Origin: an uncultured archaeon
Lineage (GTDB): Archaea > Iainarchaeota > Iainarchaeia > Iainarchaeales > 1-14-0-10-31-34
Assembly (NCBI GenBank): GCA_964442255.1
Contig: CAYTYC010000004.1
Location: 1,416-65,415 of the forward strand
Direction: 5' to 3'
Length of the DNA stretch: 64,000 nt
Positions 3,600-16,470 of the stretch are shown here, one piece after another. Under the pieces are notes generated by a model. It made no database searches. It was given only the letters and a program-made list of their open reading frames with translations, and was not told where the DNA came from. A program made the translations under genes and the position numbers. How positions within the stretch are numbered: the stretch's first letter is position 1; every line of letters begins with the position of its first letter.

Positions 3600-3601
3600 T
3601 T

Positions 3602-3748
3602 ACTGGCTTTTTTCTTTTCCTTTTTTTATTGCGTAATAGCCGAATATTGCAAGCAGTGCCGCGTAAAACGAATTCATTAACGCGAAAACAATAAAGATTG
3701 CGCCAGTAATAACCATCATTTTCTTTTTCGTTTCAGTTGAAACCATGC
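3602..3748 (-). CDS. Small (48-aa) single-TM membrane protein
   Basis: Translated by hand: MVSTETKKKMMVITGAIFIVFALMNSFYAALLAIFGYYAIKKGKEKSQ. Not in the ORF track because it is under 60 aa. Confidence 0.3.
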
Positions 3749-3924
3749 CAAAAAATAGTGTTTTCTGGTATTTAAGGCTTCCGAATCAGCTGGCTCTGTA
3801 GAAATAATTTATAAAGGCAGTTTTTCAGTCTCATAAACTGCAAGCATTTGGCAATTAAACGCGTTTCAAATCCCAAAAATTCACATTTCTACCCCGCCGA
3901 ATCAGCTCGAAAAAAAGAAAAAAT

Positions 3925-4180
3925 TGCCCCGGCCGGGATTTGAACCCGGGTCACGGCCTATCCCCCCACCTGCAAAACCCATATTTATAAGGGATTGAGC
4001 GTAAGCGAAATCCCTTGACGTATGCGCATGTAAACCGACAGTGGCGGTTTCCCTGAAAATTAAGGGAGGTACCGGAACCATAGGTTCTGATTCCCCCGAA
4101 GGGTATCGGAGGTATCGGAACCACGGAGTGGTTCTGATTTTGAGAGGGCCGTGTGCTTGACCGGACTACACTACCGGGGC
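3925..4180 (-). tRNA. tRNA (probably Glu, anticodon CUC) interrupted by a ~184-nt intron at or near the canonical 37/38 position
   Basis: The 5' exon at 4144-4180 reads GCCCCGG-UA-GUGU-AGUCCGGUCAA-GCAC-A-CGGCC-CUCUCA. The 3' exon at 3925-3959 reads A-GGCCG-UGAC-CCGGG-UUCAAAU-CCCGG-CCGGGGC-A. The acceptor and anticodon stems pair perfectly only when the intervening 184 nt are removed. Confidence 0.7.
3979..4052. repeat. Conserved two-hairpin element (copy 1), inside the long tRNA intron; shares a ~70-nt core with 15472..15543
   Basis: catatttataa-GGGATT(N12)AATCCC-ttGACGTATgcgcatGTAAACCGACAGTGGCGGTTTcc is near-identical to the second locus. Hairpin 2 is AAACCG/CGGTTT with a 7-nt loop. Confidence 0.7.
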
Positions 4181-4217
4181 CTCTAAGAAATGGTTCCGGG
4201 AACGCTTTAAATGGTTT

Positions 4218-4880
4218 TTGCTTGTGCTTTCTTTAATGAAGTTTAAGGCTGTTTTCTTTGACTTGGACGGAACATTGGTGGACAGCATTCCCTTGCATGC
4301 CTCTTCCTTTCACGAGCTTTTACGCGAATTGGGTTTGGAAATGCCTTTGGAGGAGCTTGTTCCAATGATTGGCCAGACCAGCCAGCAGATGTTTGAGGAA
4401 TTCAATAAAAGAAAGCCGTTGGGTGTGAGCCTGGAAAAATTTTTTGAAATGCGGAGAACTTACTTCAAGAAAGCGATTGGAGAAAAGGACATCACTTTTT
4501 CCCCCGTGTTCGGGGTTTTAAGCGAACTTAAGGGAAAAATTCCTTTGGCGCTTGTAACCAATTCCAGCCATAAAACCACTTTTAAAATAACCACGAATGA
4601 AAGGCTGAGAAGCTTTTTTGACGTGATTGTCACTGCGGGGGACGTGAAAAAACCCAAGCCAAACCCTGAACCCTTTGAGCTTGCCGCCAAAAAACTGGGT
4701 GTTCCGCTTAAGGAATGCGTTTTGGTTGGCGACGCAGTGCAGGACGCGGAGGGCGCAAAAAACGCGGGAATTCCTTTTATTGCCGTGACCACGGGAATCG
4801 CTTCCAAGGAAGAGCTGGAAAAATTCAGGCCTTTCGCTTTAATTGAGTCCCTGGAAGGGCTTATTCCACTTCTACTTTGA
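4218..4880 (+). CDS. HAD-superfamily hydrolase (subfamily IA; phosphatase or beta-phosphoglucomutase-like)
   Basis: FFDLDGTLVDS motif I, conserved T/S motif II, and a K...GDxxxD motif III (LVGDAVQD); 220 aa. Confidence 0.8.
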   Translation: MLVLSLMKFKAVFFDLDGTLVDSIPLHASSFHELLRELGLEMPLEELVPMIGQTSQQMFEEFNKRKPLGVSLEKFFEMRRTYFKKAIGEKDITFSPVFGVLSELKGKIPLALVTNSSHKTTFKITTNERLRSFFDVIVTAGDVKKPKPNPEPFELAAKKLGVPLKECVLVGDAVQDAEGAKNAGIPFIAVTTGIASKEELEKFRPFALIESLEGLIPLLL

Positions 4881-5295: not shown

Positions 5296-5577
5296 TTAAT
5301 TCTTTTTAAGGAACAAGGCGCCTGCGGCCACCACTATTACCCCAAAAACAGCCTTCAAAAAACCGTAAAAGGTGAAAATTCCCGCCAAAACCTGCAGCCC
5401 GGAGAAAACATCAAGTGCGCCTGTTTCCGCGATTGAGCCAAGCGCCTGTATTTCGCTTACCTGCTGCCCAATGAAGCTCCCGAAAAGCCCTCCCGCAAAA
5501 ACGGTCACAAGGCCTTCAACAACAAAAAGCGCCCCAATTAAAACCAATGCAATCCCCAAAAGTTTTTCTTTCTCCAT
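5296..5577 (-). CDS. Hypothetical small membrane protein (Gly/Ala-rich TM helices)
   Basis: 93-aa ORF with 3 predicted TM helices. Confidence 0.4.
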   Translation of the reverse strand: MEKEKLLGIALVLIGALFVVEGLVTVFAGGLFGSFIGQQVSEIQALGSIAETGALDVFSGLQVLAGIFTFYGFLKAVFGVIVVAAGALFLKKN

Positions 5578-5583
5578 TTTTTT

Positions 5584-5988
5584 TCAGCCCCAGTATTTCA
5601 TTCCCTCTTCAACACTTAACATCCGCCACTTTATTTCAGCGTCTTCCTGGAAAACGTACCTGTCGATTGCCTTGTCCGCAAAGTTTTCGTTCACAAACAG
5701 CGCCCAAAAATGCTTTGAATCGGCTTCCACTCCGTCAATTGATTTCATGAACGCGCCGTAAAGCGATTCACTGTAAATGACATCAAATTTTTCTTTCATT
5801 GCCTGCAGCCCGTTTGAGCCTTTTGGAACCTGCACTGTTTCCTCTTTTACTTCCCCGCCGGCTTCCACTGTCAGCTTTATGGTGACTGTTTCGCCTGAGG
5901 AAGGAACTTCAGTCCCCGGACTTGTACATCCTAACGTCAGTGCGCTTACCGCCATCAACACGAGTAATGCTGACCACTTTGAGTTCAT
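5584..5988 (-). CDS. DUF4430-domain lipoprotein
   Basis: Lipobox signal peptide MNSKWSALLVLMAVSALTLGC. The C-terminal W..FVNE....A.D.Y.F.EDAEI.W pattern matches DUF4430 (W..YVNG....Y.L.DGD.I.W). Confidence 0.6.
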   Translation of the reverse strand: MNSKWSALLVLMAVSALTLGCTSPGTEVPSSGETVTIKLTVEAGGEVKEETVQVPKGSNGLQAMKEKFDVIYSESLYGAFMKSIDGVEADSKHFWALFVNENFADKAIDRYVFQEDAEIKWRMLSVEEGMKYWG

Positions 5989-6772: not shown

Positions 6773-6870
6773 TGTTCCACAGCCTTTTCAAAAAAGGCTG
6801 GCGAAAAATGGTTTTCGGTTTTTTCAAAAACCATGCAAAACCTTCGGTTTTGCGTGGCCACGTGACGTTG

Positions 6871-6955: not shown

Positions 6956-7618
6956 TCACACCAGCCTGCTTTTCACCAGGATTTTTTTGTTGTGCAATAC
7001 AACCTTGTCCGCGTAACCCAAAAAAAGCCCTGACTCCAGTACTCCGGGAATGTCCTTGGACTGGTACTCCAGGTCCTCCAAGGAATGGATTTCGTCCACC
7101 GCAACATCAACCAAATAGTTTCCTGACTCGGTTTTCATTATCCTGTCGCCTTCTTTCCGCAGGTGTGTTGAGCCAAGGTTTTCCAATTGAATAATGGTTC
7201 TCTTGTAGCCGAAAGGGGTTATCTCGAAGGGAATTACTCCCCCCAGCCTTTCCGCAAACGCCTTTTCGTCCGCCACAATGATTAAGGTTTCAGCGCTTTG
7301 CGCAACCATTTTGTCCCTCACAAGCGAGTGGGAATCCCTTTTAATGTAATTGAAGTCCCGGTCCACCAAATCCGCGAACTCCACAGCCAAATCGATTTCA
7401 TGCTCGTTCAGTGAAGTTAAAGGCAGTTTGAGTTGCGCCGCAATTGTTGTAATGTTTGCGGAGGTTGGGACGACCTTTAAGTCCAGCCCTTTTTCCTCCT
7501 TATGCAATGCGATTTTTTTCAAAAACTTTTCCCCTAACTCGCTTGACCCTATCCCCAAAACCTGCCCGCCTTTAATGAACCGGGACACGAAATCTTCCAT
7601 TCTTTCCTCGGAAAGCAT
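6956..7618 (-). CDS. rpiA: Ribose-5-phosphate isomerase A homologue (divergent)
   Basis: GIGSS near the N-terminus, VVPTS, IDLAVEFADLVD (aligns to the IDxAIDGADEVD motif) and IIVADEKAF; 220 aa. Several catalytic-motif residues differ from the canonical RpiA sequence. Confidence 0.6.
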   Translation of the reverse strand: MLSEERMEDFVSRFIKGGQVLGIGSSELGEKFLKKIALHKEEKGLDLKVVPTSANITTIAAQLKLPLTSLNEHEIDLAVEFADLVDRDFNYIKRDSHSLVRDKMVAQSAETLIIVADEKAFAERLGGVIPFEITPFGYKRTIIQLENLGSTHLRKEGDRIMKTESGNYLVDVAVDEIHSLEDLEYQSKDIPGVLESGLFLGYADKVVLHNKKILVKSRLV

Positions 7619-10089: not shown

Positions 10090-11121
10090 GTGAATGATGC
10101 GAGAGTTGAGTTTAGGGACAACGACATTAAGAGGCAGTTTTTTGCTGAATTAAAGGAAGCCGCCAAGGCAAAAAGCTGGAAAAAGCTGGCAAACTGTTTT
10201 GGGGTCAGCCTGAAGACTTTTCAGAGCTACTTGTATGGGGGCTTCACGGTTCCAGGAAATCTCTTCAGTCGATTTATTGAAAATTTCCCGGAAGAAAAAA
10301 AGCGTTTTTATTCAGATAATGTTAATTTAAAAGATAAAAATTGGGGGGCAGTTTTGGGCGGCAAAAGAAACTATCAGCTGCACCCGGAAATTTATGAAAA
10401 AGGCAGAAAAATTGCGGCACTTAGGCGCAAAGGAAAAGAAGAAACTTTTGACTTTGATGTTCCGCTTTCAGAGGATTTGTGTGAATTTATCGGCGCATTT
10501 ATCGGCGACGGGTTTACTAATAGATATGGCCGCCATTATTGGACAGAGTTAACAGGGGACATAAATCTTGATAAAGAATATCTGACAAATGTTCTTGCAA
10601 GAAACGTGTTTTCTTTGCTTGGGGTAAATTCAACTTCAAGGCCGAATAGCGGCAATAATGCTCTAAGGCTGATTTTTCACTCAAAATTTTTGTTTAAGCT
10701 TTTAACCGAGCGTTTCAAATTTCCCGCAGGAGTGAAATGTTATACCGTAAAAATTCCTGAAGAGATAATTAATGCAGGTGGTCCTCTATTGTATGCGACA
10801 ATTAGGGGAATATTTGATACTGATGGTTGCGTTTTTTTCAGCCAAAGAAAAGTCTACAGAAAACCTTATCCAAGGGTTACGTTTCAAACGGCAAGCGAGT
10901 CACTGCATTCACAAGTGAAAGAAATTCTAAGCAAAGAGTTCAGCCTGTATTCATACAAAAACAGGGAAAAGAAGAAATTTGCTGTAGATGTTTATGGCCA
11001 CAACCAGCTTAAAAAGTGGCTTCGTTTGATAGGGTTTTCTAATAAAAGGCATCTTGATAGGTTAAACAGGTTTCAAGATGCTAAGCCCTGGGCGGGGATC
11101 GAACCCGCGACCTCATGCTAG
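10090..11121 (+). CDS. Free-standing LAGLIDADG homing endonuclease (two-motif, single-chain type)
   Basis: Motif 1 is FIGAFIGDGF and motif 2 is IRGIFDTDGCV; 343 aa. The 3' end overlaps the tRNA-Thr(GGU) gene on the opposite strand by ~37 nt. Confidence 0.8.
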   Translation: MNDARVEFRDNDIKRQFFAELKEAAKAKSWKKLANCFGVSLKTFQSYLYGGFTVPGNLFSRFIENFPEEKKRFYSDNVNLKDKNWGAVLGGKRNYQLHPEIYEKGRKIAALRRKGKEETFDFDVPLSEDLCEFIGAFIGDGFTNRYGRHYWTELTGDINLDKEYLTNVLARNVFSLLGVNSTSRPNSGNNALRLIFHSKFLFKLLTERFKFPAGVKCYTVKIPEEIINAGGPLLYATIRGIFDTDGCVFFSQRKVYRKPYPRVTFQTASESLHSQVKEILSKEFSLYSYKNREKKKFAVDVYGHNQLKKWLRLIGFSNKRHLDRLNRFQDAKPWAGIEPATSC

Positions 11122-11172
11122 TTGTCCTCATTAGATACCAAGCATGTATTGCTACCACTAAACTACCAGGGC
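11084..11172 (-). tRNA. tRNA-Thr (anticodon GGU) with a 16-nt intron at 37/38
   Basis: Reverse complement reads GCCCUGG-UA-GUUU-..-CAUGC-UUGGUA[UCUAAUGAGGACAACU]A-GCAUG-AGGUC-GCGGG-UUCGAUC-CCCGC-CCAGGGC-U. Discriminator is U73. Confidence 0.75.
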
Positions 11173-13954: not shown

Positions 13955-15418
13955 TTACAGTTTCCTCCTTGAAAGCATGAAACCAACCAATGCAAGCACT
14001 GGAATGATTTCCAGCCTGCCAATCCACATGTTTAATATTAGAACTGTTTCGCTTAATAAAGGCATTCCCTGCTGGGAGATTCCCGAGGAAATTCCGACAT
14101 TTCCTTGCGCTGAAGCCACTTCAAACAGCGCGGTCCCCAAATTTGTTCCGTCCAGTGTGAGGAGCGCGGTTCCAATTAAAAGGAAAATGGCGTACAGTAA
14201 AATGAACTGCGTCACCTGTTTTATTTCCTTGTCTTCCACGTCCCTGCCCTCAAATTTTCTTGCAAAAAAGGAATCTTCAGGCAAAACGCTTGCCTTTATT
14301 CTCCAGTAAATTGATTTAATGAAGATAATGAACCTGCTCAGCTTTATTCCGCCTGCAGTGCTTCCGCTTGAGCCCCCAATAAACATCACCCCAATCAAAA
14401 GCAGTTTAATGAAGTCTTCCCATACCCTCACTTCAGTGGGCGACACCAATGAAACGCCTCCCGCGGTTAAAGCCGACACCACATGAAAGAACGCGTACTC
14501 CACTCCAATGTAATTTGAGCCGTAGAATAAAATCATTTTCGGGAGAATAATTAATGAAGTGAGTGCCCCAAGAAAAAGCAGTGCCCTGAATTCAATGTCC
14601 CCAAAAAAAGCCTTTACTTGCTTGCGCTTGAAGAACAGGTAATGCACGGAAAAGCTGGTTGCCCCCAAAATCATCACAACCATTAAACTCAGGTCCAGCC
14701 AGGGGTTATGCCTTCCCACAAGCCCTCCTTCAATGGAATCCATTCCTGTTGTGGAGATTGCGCTCATGGAATAGTTTATTGAATGGAACAAACTTAAATC
14801 CGAGGAAAGGAAAACCAATAGTGTCCCGAAAACTGTGAGAATAACGTAAATTGCCCAAAGGTCTTTCACCATGTTTTTAATGTTTGGGCGAAGCCTTTCC
14901 TGTTTTCCTTCCGCAAGCAAAAACCTTGCGCTTTTCGTGTAGGCTGCAAACACTCCAACCAAAGCCATCACCACTATCCCTAATCCTCCAATCCATGAAA
15001 GAAAGCTTCTCCAGAAAATAAGGCTTTTTGGCAGGTTGCCTATGTGCGGCACCACACTCAGCCCGGTGGTTGTGATTGCGCTCATTGCCTCAAAAAAAGA
15101 GTCAAGGAAATTCATTCCCTGAATTAAAACAAACGGAAAGCCCGCTATTGCGGGAAAAACCAGCCAGATTACGCTTATTGCAATCAGCGCGTGCTTTAAT
15201 TCCGTGTCCTGGTCTGAAGCAAAAATTTTTTTTATCACATAGCCTAAAGCAAAAGAGAAAACGCCCACAAGGGCGTATTTTGCCATTATGTGCACGGGTT
15301 CCAGGAACAGGAGCGCGGCCAGAACCGGAATCGCATAGGCCGCGCTGCTCCACTGCAAAACCGTCCCAAAATCCCTTAGCACAACTTTTAAGTCTTCCCC
15401 TGAAACCCGGATAAACAT
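13955..15418 (-). CDS. trkH: TrkH/KtrB-family potassium uptake membrane protein
   Basis: 487 aa, polytopic, with repeated pore-loop-like TTGL/TAGG/TTGM segments. Gene pair with trkA. Confidence 0.8.
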   Translation of the reverse strand: MFIRVSGEDLKVVLRDFGTVLQWSSAAYAIPVLAALLFLEPVHIMAKYALVGVFSFALGYVIKKIFASDQDTELKHALIAISVIWLVFPAIAGFPFVLIQGMNFLDSFFEAMSAITTTGLSVVPHIGNLPKSLIFWRSFLSWIGGLGIVVMALVGVFAAYTKSARFLLAEGKQERLRPNIKNMVKDLWAIYVILTVFGTLLVFLSSDLSLFHSINYSMSAISTTGMDSIEGGLVGRHNPWLDLSLMVVMILGATSFSVHYLFFKRKQVKAFFGDIEFRALLFLGALTSLIILPKMILFYGSNYIGVEYAFFHVVSALTAGGVSLVSPTEVRVWEDFIKLLLIGVMFIGGSSGSTAGGIKLSRFIIFIKSIYWRIKASVLPEDSFFARKFEGRDVEDKEIKQVTQFILLYAIFLLIGTALLTLDGTNLGTALFEVASAQGNVGISSGISQQGMPLLSETVLILNMWIGRLEIIPVLALVGFMLSRRKL

Positions 15419-15471
15419 TTGTAAATAAAGGGCTTTTTCATTTAAAAGCGTTGAGGGAACGCCCGGAACCG

Positions 15472-15543
15472 CATATTTATGGGGGATTCGACTGAAAGGA
15501 GAATCCCTCGACGTATCCTGGCGTAAACCGACAGTGGCGGTTT
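15472..15543. repeat. Conserved two-hairpin element (copy 2), immediately 3' of tRNA-Leu
   Basis: gcatatttatg-GGGGATTC(N11)GAATCCC-tcGACGTATcctggcGTAAACCGACAGTGGCGGTTTgc. Compare 3979-4052. Confidence 0.7.
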
Positions 15544-15658
15544 GCAGGGGGGAGGATTCGAACCCCCGAAGGCACTAAGCCACAGCGCCTAATCCCAATC
15601 AAACCCGTAGGTTACGATTGTCTGAACGCTGCTCGTTTGACCGCTTCGATACCCCTGC
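15543..15658 (-). tRNA. tRNA-Leu (anticodon CAG) with a ~32-nt intron and a long variable arm
   Basis: Reverse complement reads GCAGGGG-UA-UCG-AAGCGGUCAAA-CGA-G-CAGCG-UUCAGA[C..intron..]G-CGCUG-(UGGCUUAGUGCCUUCG variable arm)-GGGGG-UUCGAAU-CCUCC-CCCCUGC-A. A73 is the Leu discriminator. Confidence 0.75.
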
Positions 15659-15700
15659 TTAAGAAAGCGTTTAATCAAAAACAATAAAAAACAGGAACCT

Positions 15701-16132
15701 TTACCTTAACTCGGTTTTGATTGCTTTGGCTATTTTTTCCGGCAGTTCATCTGGCTTTGTGCTTACTGAGGCGAACCCTGACTCAATTTTTTCGCTTAAT
15801 CCTTTGGAGTCTTTTCGCATTCCTGCAAACCCTTGTTTCATTCCTGTGAAGCCTTCCTGCATTCCTGCAAAACCTTCCCGCATTTCTGTGAATCCTTCTT
15901 TCATTGCCTGATAGCCCAGGGTTTGGTAGCCGATGCCTTTGTCCAGCTGCTCTAAAATCAGGGATTGATTGTATTGTTCACTGTTCGCCAAACTTATGCG
16001 GTTGTCAAATTTTAGCCCTGAAACACTGACTTTCCTTTTTTCTCTTTCCCCGCCAAATTCTATTGCCGAGGGAAAATGCTTTTTCAGGTAGCCGTGAAAT
16101 TCCCTGATGTTTTCTTTTGTTCCCTCAACCAT
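15701..16132 (-). CDS. Hypothetical protein with a tandem heptad (E/Q)GF(A/T)GM(x) repeat
   Basis: ..KEGFTEMREGFAGMQEGFTGMKQGFAGMRKD.. The start is taken at the internal Met (MVEGTKEN) because the listed start at 16249 overlaps tRNA-Arg. Confidence 0.45.
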   Translation of the reverse strand: MVEGTKENIREFHGYLKKHFPSAIEFGGEREKRKVSVSGLKFDNRISLANSEQYNQSLILEQLDKGIGYQTLGYQAMKEGFTEMREGFAGMQEGFTGMKQGFAGMRKDSKGLSEKIESGFASVSTKPDELPEKIAKAIKTELR

Positions 16133-16208
16133 TTTTCTCTTATAGAAAGGGATTGGGATCGTATTTAAGGTTTCCTGTTCGTCAATTACCAACGGAAGGT
16201 TAGTTGAT

Positions 16209-16280
16209 CGGGCCCACGGGGAATCGAACCCCGGTCTGCAGCTCCGCAAGCAACCGTACTGTCCACTATACTATGGGCCC
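16209..16280 (-). tRNA. tRNA-Arg (anticodon GCG), 72 nt, no intron
   Basis: Reverse complement reads GGGCCCA-UA-GUAU-AGUGGACA-GUAC-G-GUUGC-UUGCGGA-GCUGC-AGAC-CGGGG-UUCGAUU-CCCCG-UGGGCCC-G. There is one U-U mismatch in the anticodon stem. Confidence 0.65.
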
Positions 16281-16365
16281 CGGCTTAAAATAATTCCCCT
16301 AAAAGCCTTTTTATTTTCTTGCTTCAGGCGTAAGCCGTTTTTGGTGAAATTTCTAAAAAGTTTTA

Positions 16366-16470
16366 GAAACCCTTTCCGGGAACCCCGCCCATTTTAATGG
16401 GCAAATGAATTGTTTCCATTAAGCCGTTTGCGGAAAAAAAAAAATTCGGCGGATTTTTAGCCCGCCGCAG
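16366..16470. repeat. Copy B of the ~100-nt R1 element (hairpin plus T11 terminator, then a conserved segment), directly after the stop of the membrane-protein gene
   Basis: gaaacccTttccgggaaccccgccCAtttTaatgggc...gccgtttGcgg aaaaaaaaaaa ttcggcggatttttagcccgccgCag. Compare 781-880. Confidence 0.7.

Follow-up and report, generated by a model that had tools for sequence, protein, structure and literature searches.

The tRNA-Trp intron of Euryarchaeota carries a C/D box sRNA that lies in the sense orientation, is released by splicing and guides methylation of the same tRNA. In the eukaryotic long non-coding RNAs MALAT1-mascRNA and MEN-beta, RNase P sets the 3' end at a tRNA-like structure. The REP/REPIN sequences, MITEs and integron attC sites of bacteria are short, repeated, non-coding intergenic hairpins that have sharp ends, conserve structure more than sequence and are linked to rearrangements. 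For the gain of long introns by archaeal tRNA genes, and for the splitting of such genes, we know of only one concrete lead, namely the mobile C/D sRNAs near disrupted genes of Nanoarchaeum. In Nanoarchaeum equitans, C/D box sRNAs arise from dicistronic tRNA-sRNA precursors, occur in the tRNA-Met intron, flank split genes and have been called mobile (PMC3491384).

The stretch of DNA analysed here, 64 kb in full and called the window, is archaeal and DPANN-like: it encodes PolB, HisRS, TrkH and intron-containing tRNAs, all on the minus strand, and homologues of its DUF116 protein carry the names Candidatus Diapherotrites or Iainarchaeum. The window holds two copies of an element that we call E; a second, E-like unit found in a related genome is called E2. 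E resembles the N. equitans C/D sRNAs in coming from a DPANN archaeon, in abutting tRNA genes and occurring in tRNA introns (one sRNA in N. equitans), in having a box A of its own in some cases and none in others, and in standing at the borders of gene disruptions or rearrangements (Randau 2012, PMC3491384). In N. equitans, abutment means that a tRNA-processing cut yields one end of the sRNA, as we propose for E. Unlike those sRNAs, E lacks C (RUGAUGA) and D (CUGA) boxes on either strand, forms no K-turn with its 3-nt bulge, carries no 12-nt guides and ends in a 3' hairpin that never varies. The sRNAs of N. equitans come after the tRNA and are separated by an RNase Z cut, whereas E precedes an acceptor helix, sometimes that of an antisense tRNA, and would be separated by an RNase P-type cut.

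The sRNA of the tRNA-Trp intron and E are both structured and housed in long canonical introns, but the intronic copy in the window is antisense to its tRNA-Glu and has no C/D boxes. As in MALAT1, the 3' end of E would be set by RNase P at a downstream cloverleaf-like fold, proposed here to be a real or an antisense tRNA. E shares with REP sequences, MITEs and attC sites the traits listed above, but it is archaeal and confined to tRNA leaders, introns and trailers, lacks a RAYT, transposase or integron integrase context, and has neither a GTAG head nor R''/R' sites (RYYYAAC/GTTRRRY). E appears to be a new RNA motif family whose lifestyle, that of a tRNA-coupled mobile sRNA, would be of a known kind.

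Two copies of the element in the window

Within the 64 kb of the window, the 20/21-mer TAAACCGACAGTGGCGGTTT is present at exactly two places (4031-4050 and 15524-15543, both on the plus strand), with 0 occurrences expected from 100 dinucleotide-preserving shuffles. The two look-alike copies described in an earlier note on this DNA are present, and a chance repeat is excluded. Copies A and B, 11.5 kb apart, both contain a long irregular hairpin and a 21-mer hairpin, H2 (GTAAACCGACAGTGGCGGTTT), that is the same letter for letter, and they have in common the blocks CATATTTAT, GGGATT..AATCCC and GACGTAT that the note had pointed out. The long hairpin consists of an outer helix (P0), a conserved 4x3 internal loop (UUAU/GAC), an 8-bp helix (P1), a motif of tandem sheared G.A/A.G pairs, a 2-bp stem and a small loop; it is followed by a linker of 6-7 nt, often nCUGGC, and then by H2. 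The first of the two hairpins proposed earlier is real, but its stem is 8-9 bp rather than 6 bp long, and its supposed loop is the cap formed by the tandem G.A/A.G, the 2-bp stem and the small loop. The features of the two loci are as follows.

3925-4180, minus strand: tRNA-Glu(CUC) gene with a 181-nt canonical (37/38) intron that holds copy A (ARAGORN with introns; aligned with the tRNA-Glu of metagenome contig L006).
3980-4050, plus strand: copy A, whole unit, antisense within the tRNA-Glu intron (covariance model, 96 bits).
3980-4024, plus strand: long hairpin of copy A, with P0 at 3980-3984/4020-4024, internal loop UUAU/GAC and P1 at 3989-3996/4009-4016.
Within 3980-4024, plus strand: apical part of copy A, with G.A/A.G, a GC/GC stem and a GUAA loop.
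4031-4050, plus strand: H2 of copy A.
15441-15468, plus strand: tRNA-type promoter-like region before copy B, with box A TTTAAA at 15441-15446, GCGTT, and CCCGGAACC at 15462-15470.
15472-15543, plus strand: copy B, whole unit, comprising P0, P1, the apical G.A motif, the linker and H2 (covariance model, 89.7 bits).
15473-15516, plus strand: long hairpin of copy B, with P0 at 15473-15476/15513-15516, internal loop UUAU/GAC and P1 at 15481-15488/15502-15509.
15489-15501, plus strand: apical part of copy B, with C-G, tandem G.A/A.G, C-G and the loop.
15524-15543, plus strand: H2 of copy B, with its stem at 15525-15530/15538-15543 and loop ACAGUGG; the 3'-terminal base is the complement of A73 of tRNA-Leu.
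15543-15658, minus strand: tRNA-Leu(CAG) gene with an intron of about 32 nt, its 3' end abutted by copy B (Rfam tRNA, 40 bits; ARAGORN with introns).

Orthologues of this tRNA-Leu at the syntenic loci L014-L016 are called Leu(cag). In an independent Logan assembly of SRR7048218, the tRNA-Leu/element/trkH junction is identical base for base; an assembly artefact is excluded for the copy B junction. The left flank of copy A (CCCCCCACCTGCAAAACC) resembles the 3' end of tRNA-Leu plus AAACC, and a scenario of inversion between AAACC and GGTTT was weighed and not adopted.

Further copies and their tRNA genes

The exact 21-mer was found in one other genome among the 185,579 species representatives of GTDB, the MAG 'archaeon MEGAHIT-group-1.583', which has four copies, and in four contigs from JGI metagenomes, three of which (L004, L005 and L006) belong to the organism of this MAG and one (L007) to a third organism. 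Trained on the three window-type copies, a covariance model recovers every MAG copy, with E-values of 1e-6 to 1e-8, and reveals the E2 units in MAG tRNA leaders. The search for further copies proposed in the earlier note thus yielded nine more units in two other Diapherotrites-like DPANN archaea, bringing the total to 11 units of 47-72 nt (10 distinct sequences, three organisms). Neither a fuzzy pattern nor the covariance model found E at L009-L016, the syntenic loci reached via DUF116 and TrkH, and no E was found at other Diapherotrites loci, each with 3-7 tRNAs. Viral contigs (three scans) and phage and plasmid collections (BLAST) gave no match, and the literature on tRNA leader and intron elements of Diapherotrites yielded nothing specific.

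All 11 units sit in non-coding parts of tRNA genes, that is, in leaders, introns and trailers. The association with tRNA loci, first noticed for the two window copies, is therefore general, 11/11 units lying within or abutting tRNA genes:

Window copy B: ends on the discriminator of tRNA-Leu, antisense.
E of L007: ends on the discriminator of tRNA-Pro, antisense.
Window copy A: inside the intron of tRNA-Glu, antisense.
MAG E, four copies: upstream of tRNA-Val, tRNA-CAU, tRNA-Glu and tRNA-Tyr (9 nt from tRNA-Tyr), sense.
MAG E2, two units: abutting +1 of tRNA-Val (0 nt) and +1 of tRNA-Glu (1 nt), sense.
MAG E: inside a canonical intron of about 190 nt in tRNA-Tyr(GUA), sense.
MAG variant hairpin consisting of H2 alone, left out of the unit count: its end lies 1 nt before +1 of tRNA-CAU, sense.

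The MAG tRNA-Tyr was rebuilt by hand; ARAGORN confirms the spliced sequence, with a C1-G72 pair. Orientation relative to the tRNA is uniform in each lineage, antisense in 3/3 cases and sense in 8/8. H2 or its variant H2' lies 0-1 nt from the acceptor helix in five cases (copy B, L007, Val, Glu and CAU), and several copies precede 2-16 nt or a 57-nt module instead of a tRNA directly. After copy B comes the acceptor 7-mer of tRNA-Leu, GCAGGGG, which would be the same for a sense or an antisense tRNA because the acceptor stem is an inverted repeat. In the minimum-free-energy fold of E with the antisense tRNA-Leu, an acceptor-like helix is retained, without a clean cloverleaf.

The positions of E are not orthologous between lineages. 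E lies upstream of tRNA-Glu in the MAG versus inside its intron in the window, and the MAG tRNA-Leu has no E. In the nearest available relative (TrkH 65% identical, same gene order), the spacer between tRNA-Leu and trkH is T-rich and contains no E. DUF116 identity between the window organism and the MAG is 56%, no higher than that of either to Diapherotrites without E; H2 is nevertheless identical in every copy. Contigs L002 and L006, from two nearly identical strains, agree at 99.9% of positions over 2418 nt and cease to match immediately behind the final T of H2; of the two arrangements, that of L006 is syntenic with the window. The E family appears to have moved between tRNA genes.

Covariation, strand and known classes

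The paired strands of the long hairpin (5' strand/3' strand) read as follows in the different units.

P0, window copies: AUAU/GUAU.
P0, L007: GUAU/AUAC.
P0, MAG E: GUAC/GUAC.
P0, MAG E2: CAGU/GCUG.
P1, copy A: AAGGGAUU / AAUCCCUU.
P1, copy B: GGGGGAUU / AAUCCCUC.
P1, L007: GAGGGGUU / AACCCCUC.
P1, E2: GGGGUAUC / GAUACCCC.

The stretch CATATTTAT(A/G), regarded earlier as a TATA-like box belonging to the element, is in fact the 5' strand of the covarying P0 together with the internal loop: its CATAT pairs with GTATG of what had been taken for the linker. Because these bases form a strand of a covarying helix, a TATA box within the element is rejected; were CATATTTAT(A/G) box A, the transcription start would fall within hairpin 1. 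The covariation between copies A and B, which had been assigned to the hairpin-1 loops and the linker, sits instead in the outer pairs of hairpin 1 (A-U to G-C and A-U to G.U).

When the three window-type copies are aligned by MAFFT, 96.8% of cells are paired and four pairs have changed on both sides, that is, in a compensatory manner. In an alignment of the 10 distinct units, 95.2% of cells are paired, whereas sliding the partners by 1-3 columns leaves 25-49% paired, and 12/21 pairs show changes on both sides, a number reached by 0/500 shuffles; this alignment was fitted to the covariance model, so the pair statistics are somewhat inflated, and the sample is small and drawn from three organisms. 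Additional copies devoid of structural covariation had been named as the outcome that would tell against the element, and covariation was found instead. The earlier proposal of selection on RNA secondary structure thus holds after more copies are added. The copies of a single genome are set apart from one another by compensatory changes, suggesting upkeep of each.

H2 behaves differently: its six pairs are invariant, and the 21-mer is identical in 9/9 full copies from the three organisms. H2-like hairpins of the form GU(A/G)AAC-YG-loop-CR-GUUU recur in MAG leaders, one of them with a compensatory change from CCG/CGG to CUG/CAG. The copies contain no variable single-stranded guide, and a search of the window for targets complementary to the H2 loop or the linker gave nothing beyond chance.

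Several features distinguish the strands. All seven G.U/U.G cells, such as the second P1 pair and the U.G of P0 in copy B, are valid on the plus strand only, as is the tandem 5'-GA..GA-3' motif, which reads UC..UC on the minus strand. Copy B folds with -24.1 kcal/mol on the plus strand (z = -2.45) and with -14.8 kcal/mol on the minus strand (z = -0.62); for the plus strand of copy A, z = -2.73. The plus strand of the window, marked by G.U wobbles, the tandem G.A motif and fold energy, is the predicted folded and functional strand.

E was compared with known classes of RNA and DNA elements. At the gathering threshold, Rfam 15 finds only tRNAs in the window; the Rfam scan suggested earlier as a check thus assigns E to no family. 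A permissive scan gave chance-level matches at both copy loci (BjrC68, 18 bits against 39) and only tRNAs at related loci. A C/D box sRNA is excluded by the lack of RUGAUGA on either strand of any copy, CUGA being confined to some of the apical loops; neither copy overlaps a match to an Rfam C/D family, the sole C/D-type match being GlsR9 at 15359-15438, with 15 bits against a gathering threshold of 95. An H/ACA sRNA, which would need a large pseudouridylation pocket, was rejected on an internal loop of only 4x3 nt and a lower stem of only 4-5 bp; ACA follows the stem in L007 and the MAG only (ACACU) and not in copies A or B.

The idea of a mobile-intron remnant holds in so far as two tRNA introns contain the element and it seems mobile, but it has no bulge-helix-bulge boundary, which would take two 3-nt bulges on either side of a 4-bp helix: the flanks of copy A, UUUUCAGGG and GGUUUUGCAGG, are direct rather than complementary, and by inspection only AAACC/GGUUU can pair. 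By the criteria for MITEs and IS200/IS605 elements, the inverted termini measure only 5 nt and the two hairpins are unlike each other. No intrinsic terminator was found by a scan of 15300-15800 and 3600-4300; in the window copies H2 is followed by TTT only, on either strand, the criterion for an archaeal oligo-T terminator being at least 5 T after a G+C-rich hairpin. A CRISPR repeat was rejected given the 11.5 kb between the window copies and the irregular spacing of the MAG leader hairpins, which tRNAs then follow. K-turns, integron attC sites (R''/R'), IS200/IS605 ends, ORB and dif sites were ruled out from the sequences, a 15-aa peptide was rejected, being found in copy B only, and so was an integrated element with E or the 3' end of tRNA-Tyr (locus L001) as its boundary, no second att repeat being present.

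A predicted tRNA-coupled small RNA and competing explanations

Box A (TTTAAA) begins 31-35 nt upstream of the mature 5' ends of tRNAs in the window. On the plus strand, copy B is preceded at a distance of 31 nt by TTTAAAAGCGTT..CCCGGAACC, which almost duplicates the tRNA-Glu promoter and points to E. The sequence TTTAAA(A)GCGTT occurs only twice in the window, the other occurrence being the tRNA-Glu promoter itself, in the same orientation to its product. The box before copy B is palindromic and also faces trkH on the opposite strand. In L007, ATTTAAAT lies 46 nt upstream of the E copy. Copy A has no plus-strand box A within 60 nt. A small ncRNA gene, one of the possibilities raised at the outset, is therefore plausible for copy B, with TTTAAA 31 nt upstream, but not supported by a promoter-like box for copy A. 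The MAG copies have a box A about 40 nt upstream of P0 and no promoter between E and the tRNA, so that E there would be part of the pre-tRNA leader. A scan for bacterial-type promoters and terminators is uninformative for an archaeon.

We propose, tentatively and with a probability of roughly 45%, that E is an undescribed family of small-RNA genes whose members are coupled to tRNA processing and move between tRNA loci, its product being a predicted sRNA whose transcription, processing, protein binding and any cellular function are predicted from the sequences. E would hitch-hike on the tRNA genes of Diapherotrites/Iainarchaeia-like DPANN archaea, being transcribed either together with the tRNA (MAG leaders and intron) or from its own tRNA-type promoter into the convergent 3' end of a tRNA gene (copy B and L007). 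RNase P would then cleave on the 5' side of the neighbouring acceptor helix, right where it begins, this helix belonging to a real tRNA or to a cloverleaf-like antisense ('mirror') tRNA, and the splicing endonuclease would free intronic copies. Since an acceptor-like helix is kept in the antisense RNA, RNase P (with U at -1 and G at +1) could release E in both arrangements. We know of no archaeon for which RNase P cleavage of a mirror tRNA has been demonstrated. Protein subunits of RNase P have been reported in Diapherotrites (PMC4919917). H2 would shield the 3' end and probably binds a protein in a sequence-specific manner.

With a family that would mark recombination breakpoints and would have moved between tRNA loci, E would behave as a mobile sRNA gene. 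Copy A, which is antisense, intronic and without a promoter, is probably a transposed or inverted passenger copy. Several observations count against the sRNA: some copies are not followed directly by a tRNA, the fold with the antisense tRNA-Leu is no clean cloverleaf, the copies have no variable guide, copy A lacks a plus-strand box A and only its antisense is certainly transcribed, as an intron, and the tRNA promoters of the window lineage transcribe the E strand opposite to that transcribed in the MAG.

The main competing explanation, somewhat unlikely and compatible with the sRNA, is that E is mainly selfish, non-autonomous mobile DNA (MITE-like or of an ssDNA-hairpin type), its hairpins read by a transposase or recombinase encoded elsewhere and its RNA incidental. 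Insertion at tRNA borders and in introns would then reflect the few harmless sites of a compact genome. Non-orthologous positions, the empty syntenic site at L014 and the occurrence of E in both orientations to tRNAs, with copy A intronic and promoterless, are in keeping with such insertion, but the uniform orientation within each lineage (3/3 and 8/8) is unexpected if insertion is random. The distribution is patchy, with the exact 21-mer in one GTDB genome, and the core is identical across genomes at 56% protein identity; viral, phage and plasmid collections nevertheless hold no match. The 3' boundary is very sharp, with the strain-level breakpoint right there, and the copies have short inverted termini (AACCG..CGGTT in copy B, AAACC..GGTTT in copy A) and, in the MAG, a GCGAAGC mini-hairpin ahead of them. 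Neither a transposase nor a target-site duplication nor long terminal inverted repeats turned up, however, and the scanned proteins of the 64-kb window include no IS200/IS605 or other transposase domain. A nearby 105-nt indel indicates that small insertions are active in that population. Covariation would arise equally in mobile DNA whose hairpins are used in transposition, but the compensatory differences between copies of the same genome and the correctly spaced promoter of copy B speak against such an element.

It is highly improbable that E is a cis-acting part of the pre-tRNA on the minus strand, serving as a trailer or terminator hairpin of tRNA-Leu and as an intron module of tRNA-Glu. 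The minus strand is certainly transcribed as an intron and probably as a trailer, and most Watson-Crick pairs form on it as well, but there the G.U pairs and the tandem G.A become A.C and U.C mismatches, and copy B folds weakly (-14.8 kcal/mol). The reverse complement of H2 begins at the discriminator and is followed by UUUAC. The spacer of L014 has a T-rich terminator instead, so E could have replaced it, yet no hairpin-plus-T-run terminator was detected, just 3 U following the hairpin, and the other tRNAs of the window have no such trailer. In the MAG, moreover, the same E strand lies upstream of tRNAs, so E cannot be a trailer there.

Least probable of all is a role of H2 as a DNA target of site-specific recombination or of a homing endonuclease, with E copies as att-like sites mediating rearrangements near tRNA genes: the absolutely conserved 7-bp inverted arms (TAAACCG/CGGTTTA) and 7-bp asymmetric spacer, the H2-exact breakpoint between 99.9%-identical strains and the LAGLIDADG genes adjoining tRNA genes in the window and its relatives would fit, but the variant hairpins, with the stem kept and a spacer of 5-8 nt, could not undergo strand exchange with H2, neither window copy has a recombinase nearby, and the Xer-like tyrosine recombinase gene directly downstream of the tRNA-Tyr bearing two E copies (L001) scores 100 bits against an XerA cut-off of 220, may therefore be a diverged housekeeping Xer, and has no second att copy at its locus. 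This explanation leaves the covarying P0/P1 hairpin and the strand-specific wobbles unaccounted for; like the trailer or terminator, it fits some observations and fails to explain the covarying hairpin specific to one strand.

If the predicted plus-strand RNA is real, E is an uncatalogued archaeal family of structured RNA and possibly provides the first prokaryotic RNA 3' end defined at an antisense tRNA. The tRNA-coupled small RNA would be a second element, structurally unrelated to the C/D sRNAs of Nanoarchaeum, with the same habits in another DPANN lineage: tRNA abutment, residence in introns, location at strain-level breakpoints and absence from the orthologous sites of relatives. A bolder and improbable extension is that E represents a class of mobile sRNA genes that parasitises tRNA processing in either orientation, uses mirror tRNA as a 3'-end signal, creates and enlarges introns through insertion into leaders, anticodon-loop introns and trailers, and possibly seeds cis-split tRNAs. 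In keeping with this extension, the E-bearing long introns of tRNA-Tyr and tRNA-Glu in the related genome contain T7 and T6 terminator-like runs. If true, it would show in action the process by which the tRNA genes of Nanoarchaeum are proposed to have been fragmented. The structure model and the invariant hairpin can be used for surveys of genomes and metatranscriptomes.

Rearrangement and flanking sequence at copies of the element

Comparison of loci from the related genome (MAG 'archaeon MEGAHIT-group-1.583') and its metagenome strains revealed a strain-level rearrangement with a sharp breakpoint at one end of E, the tRNA-linked structured small RNA element. Positions 1-2418 of L002 and 1830-4247 of L006 are 99.9% identical through the final base of H2, the invariant 3' hairpin of E, and are unrelated beyond it. 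One E copy has a hairpin-rich indel of 105 nt (L001 7235-7339 vs L004) just upstream of its promoter. The following recombinase gene was also identified:

L001 5861-6727, minus strand: Xer-like tyrosine recombinase (Phage_integrase domain), immediately downstream of tRNA-Tyr

This protein scored 100 bits, where the XerA cut-off is 220, and the adjacent tRNA-Tyr gene carries two E copies.

The left flank of copy A in the window (3961-3979, plus strand), CCCCCCACCTGCAAAACC, resembles CCCCCCTGCAAACC, the minus-strand sequence at copy B (15544-15556) that comprises the tRNA-Leu 3' end and the element's first bases. Two E copies of the related genome are also followed by TTTGCAG. This likeness may be a trace of co-transferred flanking DNA, or may reflect an AAACC-GGTTT inversion.

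Introns and LAGLIDADG genes of tRNA loci

The tRNA-Glu(CUC) intron, which contains copy A, was compared with its counterpart in the related genome, together with a second conserved hairpin module, UUUUUCGCCAGCCUUUUnUGAAAAGGCUG, found in both genomes:

Window 3960-4140, minus strand: tRNA-Glu(CUC) intron
L006 4368-4470: tRNA-Glu(CUC) intron of the related genome
Window 6779-6808, minus strand: UUUUUCGCCAGCCUUUUnUGAAAAGGCUG module, upstream of the tRNA-CAU promoter
L006 4411-4440, plus strand: UUUUUCGCCAGCCUUUUnUGAAAAGGCUG module, within the tRNA-Glu intron

The intron is 181 nt long in the window vs ~106 nt in the related genome. Both share a 5' module, AUCAGAACC-loop-GGUUCCGAUACCUCC, which is present in duplicate in the window intron; outside this module the two introns are unrelated. 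In two Diapherotrites loci without E (L009 and L012), tRNA-Glu has no intron. The UUUUUCGCCAGCCUUUUnUGAAAAGGCUG module is 97% identical over 30 nt between the window and L006, and it contains a CGCCAG complementary to the CUGGCG linker that precedes H2.

The long introns of tRNA-Tyr (at L001 ~7040-7060) and tRNA-Glu (at L006 ~4405-4415) contain T7 and T6 runs, respectively, at which archaeal RNA polymerase normally terminates. Both genes might be on their way to a cis-split state, in which the E-containing part might form the leader of the tRNA 3' half.

LAGLIDADG genes were found at tRNA-gene ends:

Window 10090-11121, plus strand: free-standing LAGLIDADG_3 ORF (343 aa), converging on tRNA-Ser(GCU)
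Window 11084-11172, minus strand: tRNA-Ser(GCU)
L009 5609-6607: LAGLIDADG gene; tRNA-Thr at 5554-5628
L013 957-1847: LAGLIDADG gene; tRNA-Met at 939-1011
L015 378-1229: LAGLIDADG gene; tRNA-Leu at 1131-1261

The window ORF overlaps the last 38 nt of tRNA-Ser(GCU), and similar genes overlap tRNA ends in the three other Diapherotrites contigs. These overlaps suggest that they are homing-endonuclease genes targeting tRNA-gene borders.

Promoters, repeats and large ORFs of the window

A common promoter layout in the window consists of TTTAAA, 5-20 nt and CCGGAA, and occurs upstream of tRNA-Thr, tRNA-Glu, a site near tRNA-His, and copy B. These sites, and the repeats and ORFs noted in the window, are:

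1245, 4211 and 12954, minus strand: TTTAAA-CCGGAA promoter layout
15441, plus strand: TTTAAA-CCGGAA promoter layout
777-830 and 16362-16415: 54-nt direct repeat, 83% identical (TTTAGAAACCCyTTCCGGGAACCCCGCC...)
15800-15904: four overlapping 42-nt copies at 21-nt spacing (7-codon period), inside ORF 15701-16249 (minus strand)
26596-59526, minus strand: four consecutive very large ORFs (~2,430-2,730 aa each) and one of ~620 aa

The boxes between tRNA-Glu and the HAD gene and between copy B and trkH look bidirectional, and the protein gene that each faces is probably leaderless. The 54-nt repeat lies ~100 nt upstream of tRNA-Arg and ~300 nt downstream of tRNA-Thr. ORF 15701-16249 (182 aa), located between tRNA-Leu and tRNA-Arg, has no Pfam match. 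The row of large ORFs shows internal repeats, an appearance typical of DPANN giant surface proteins.
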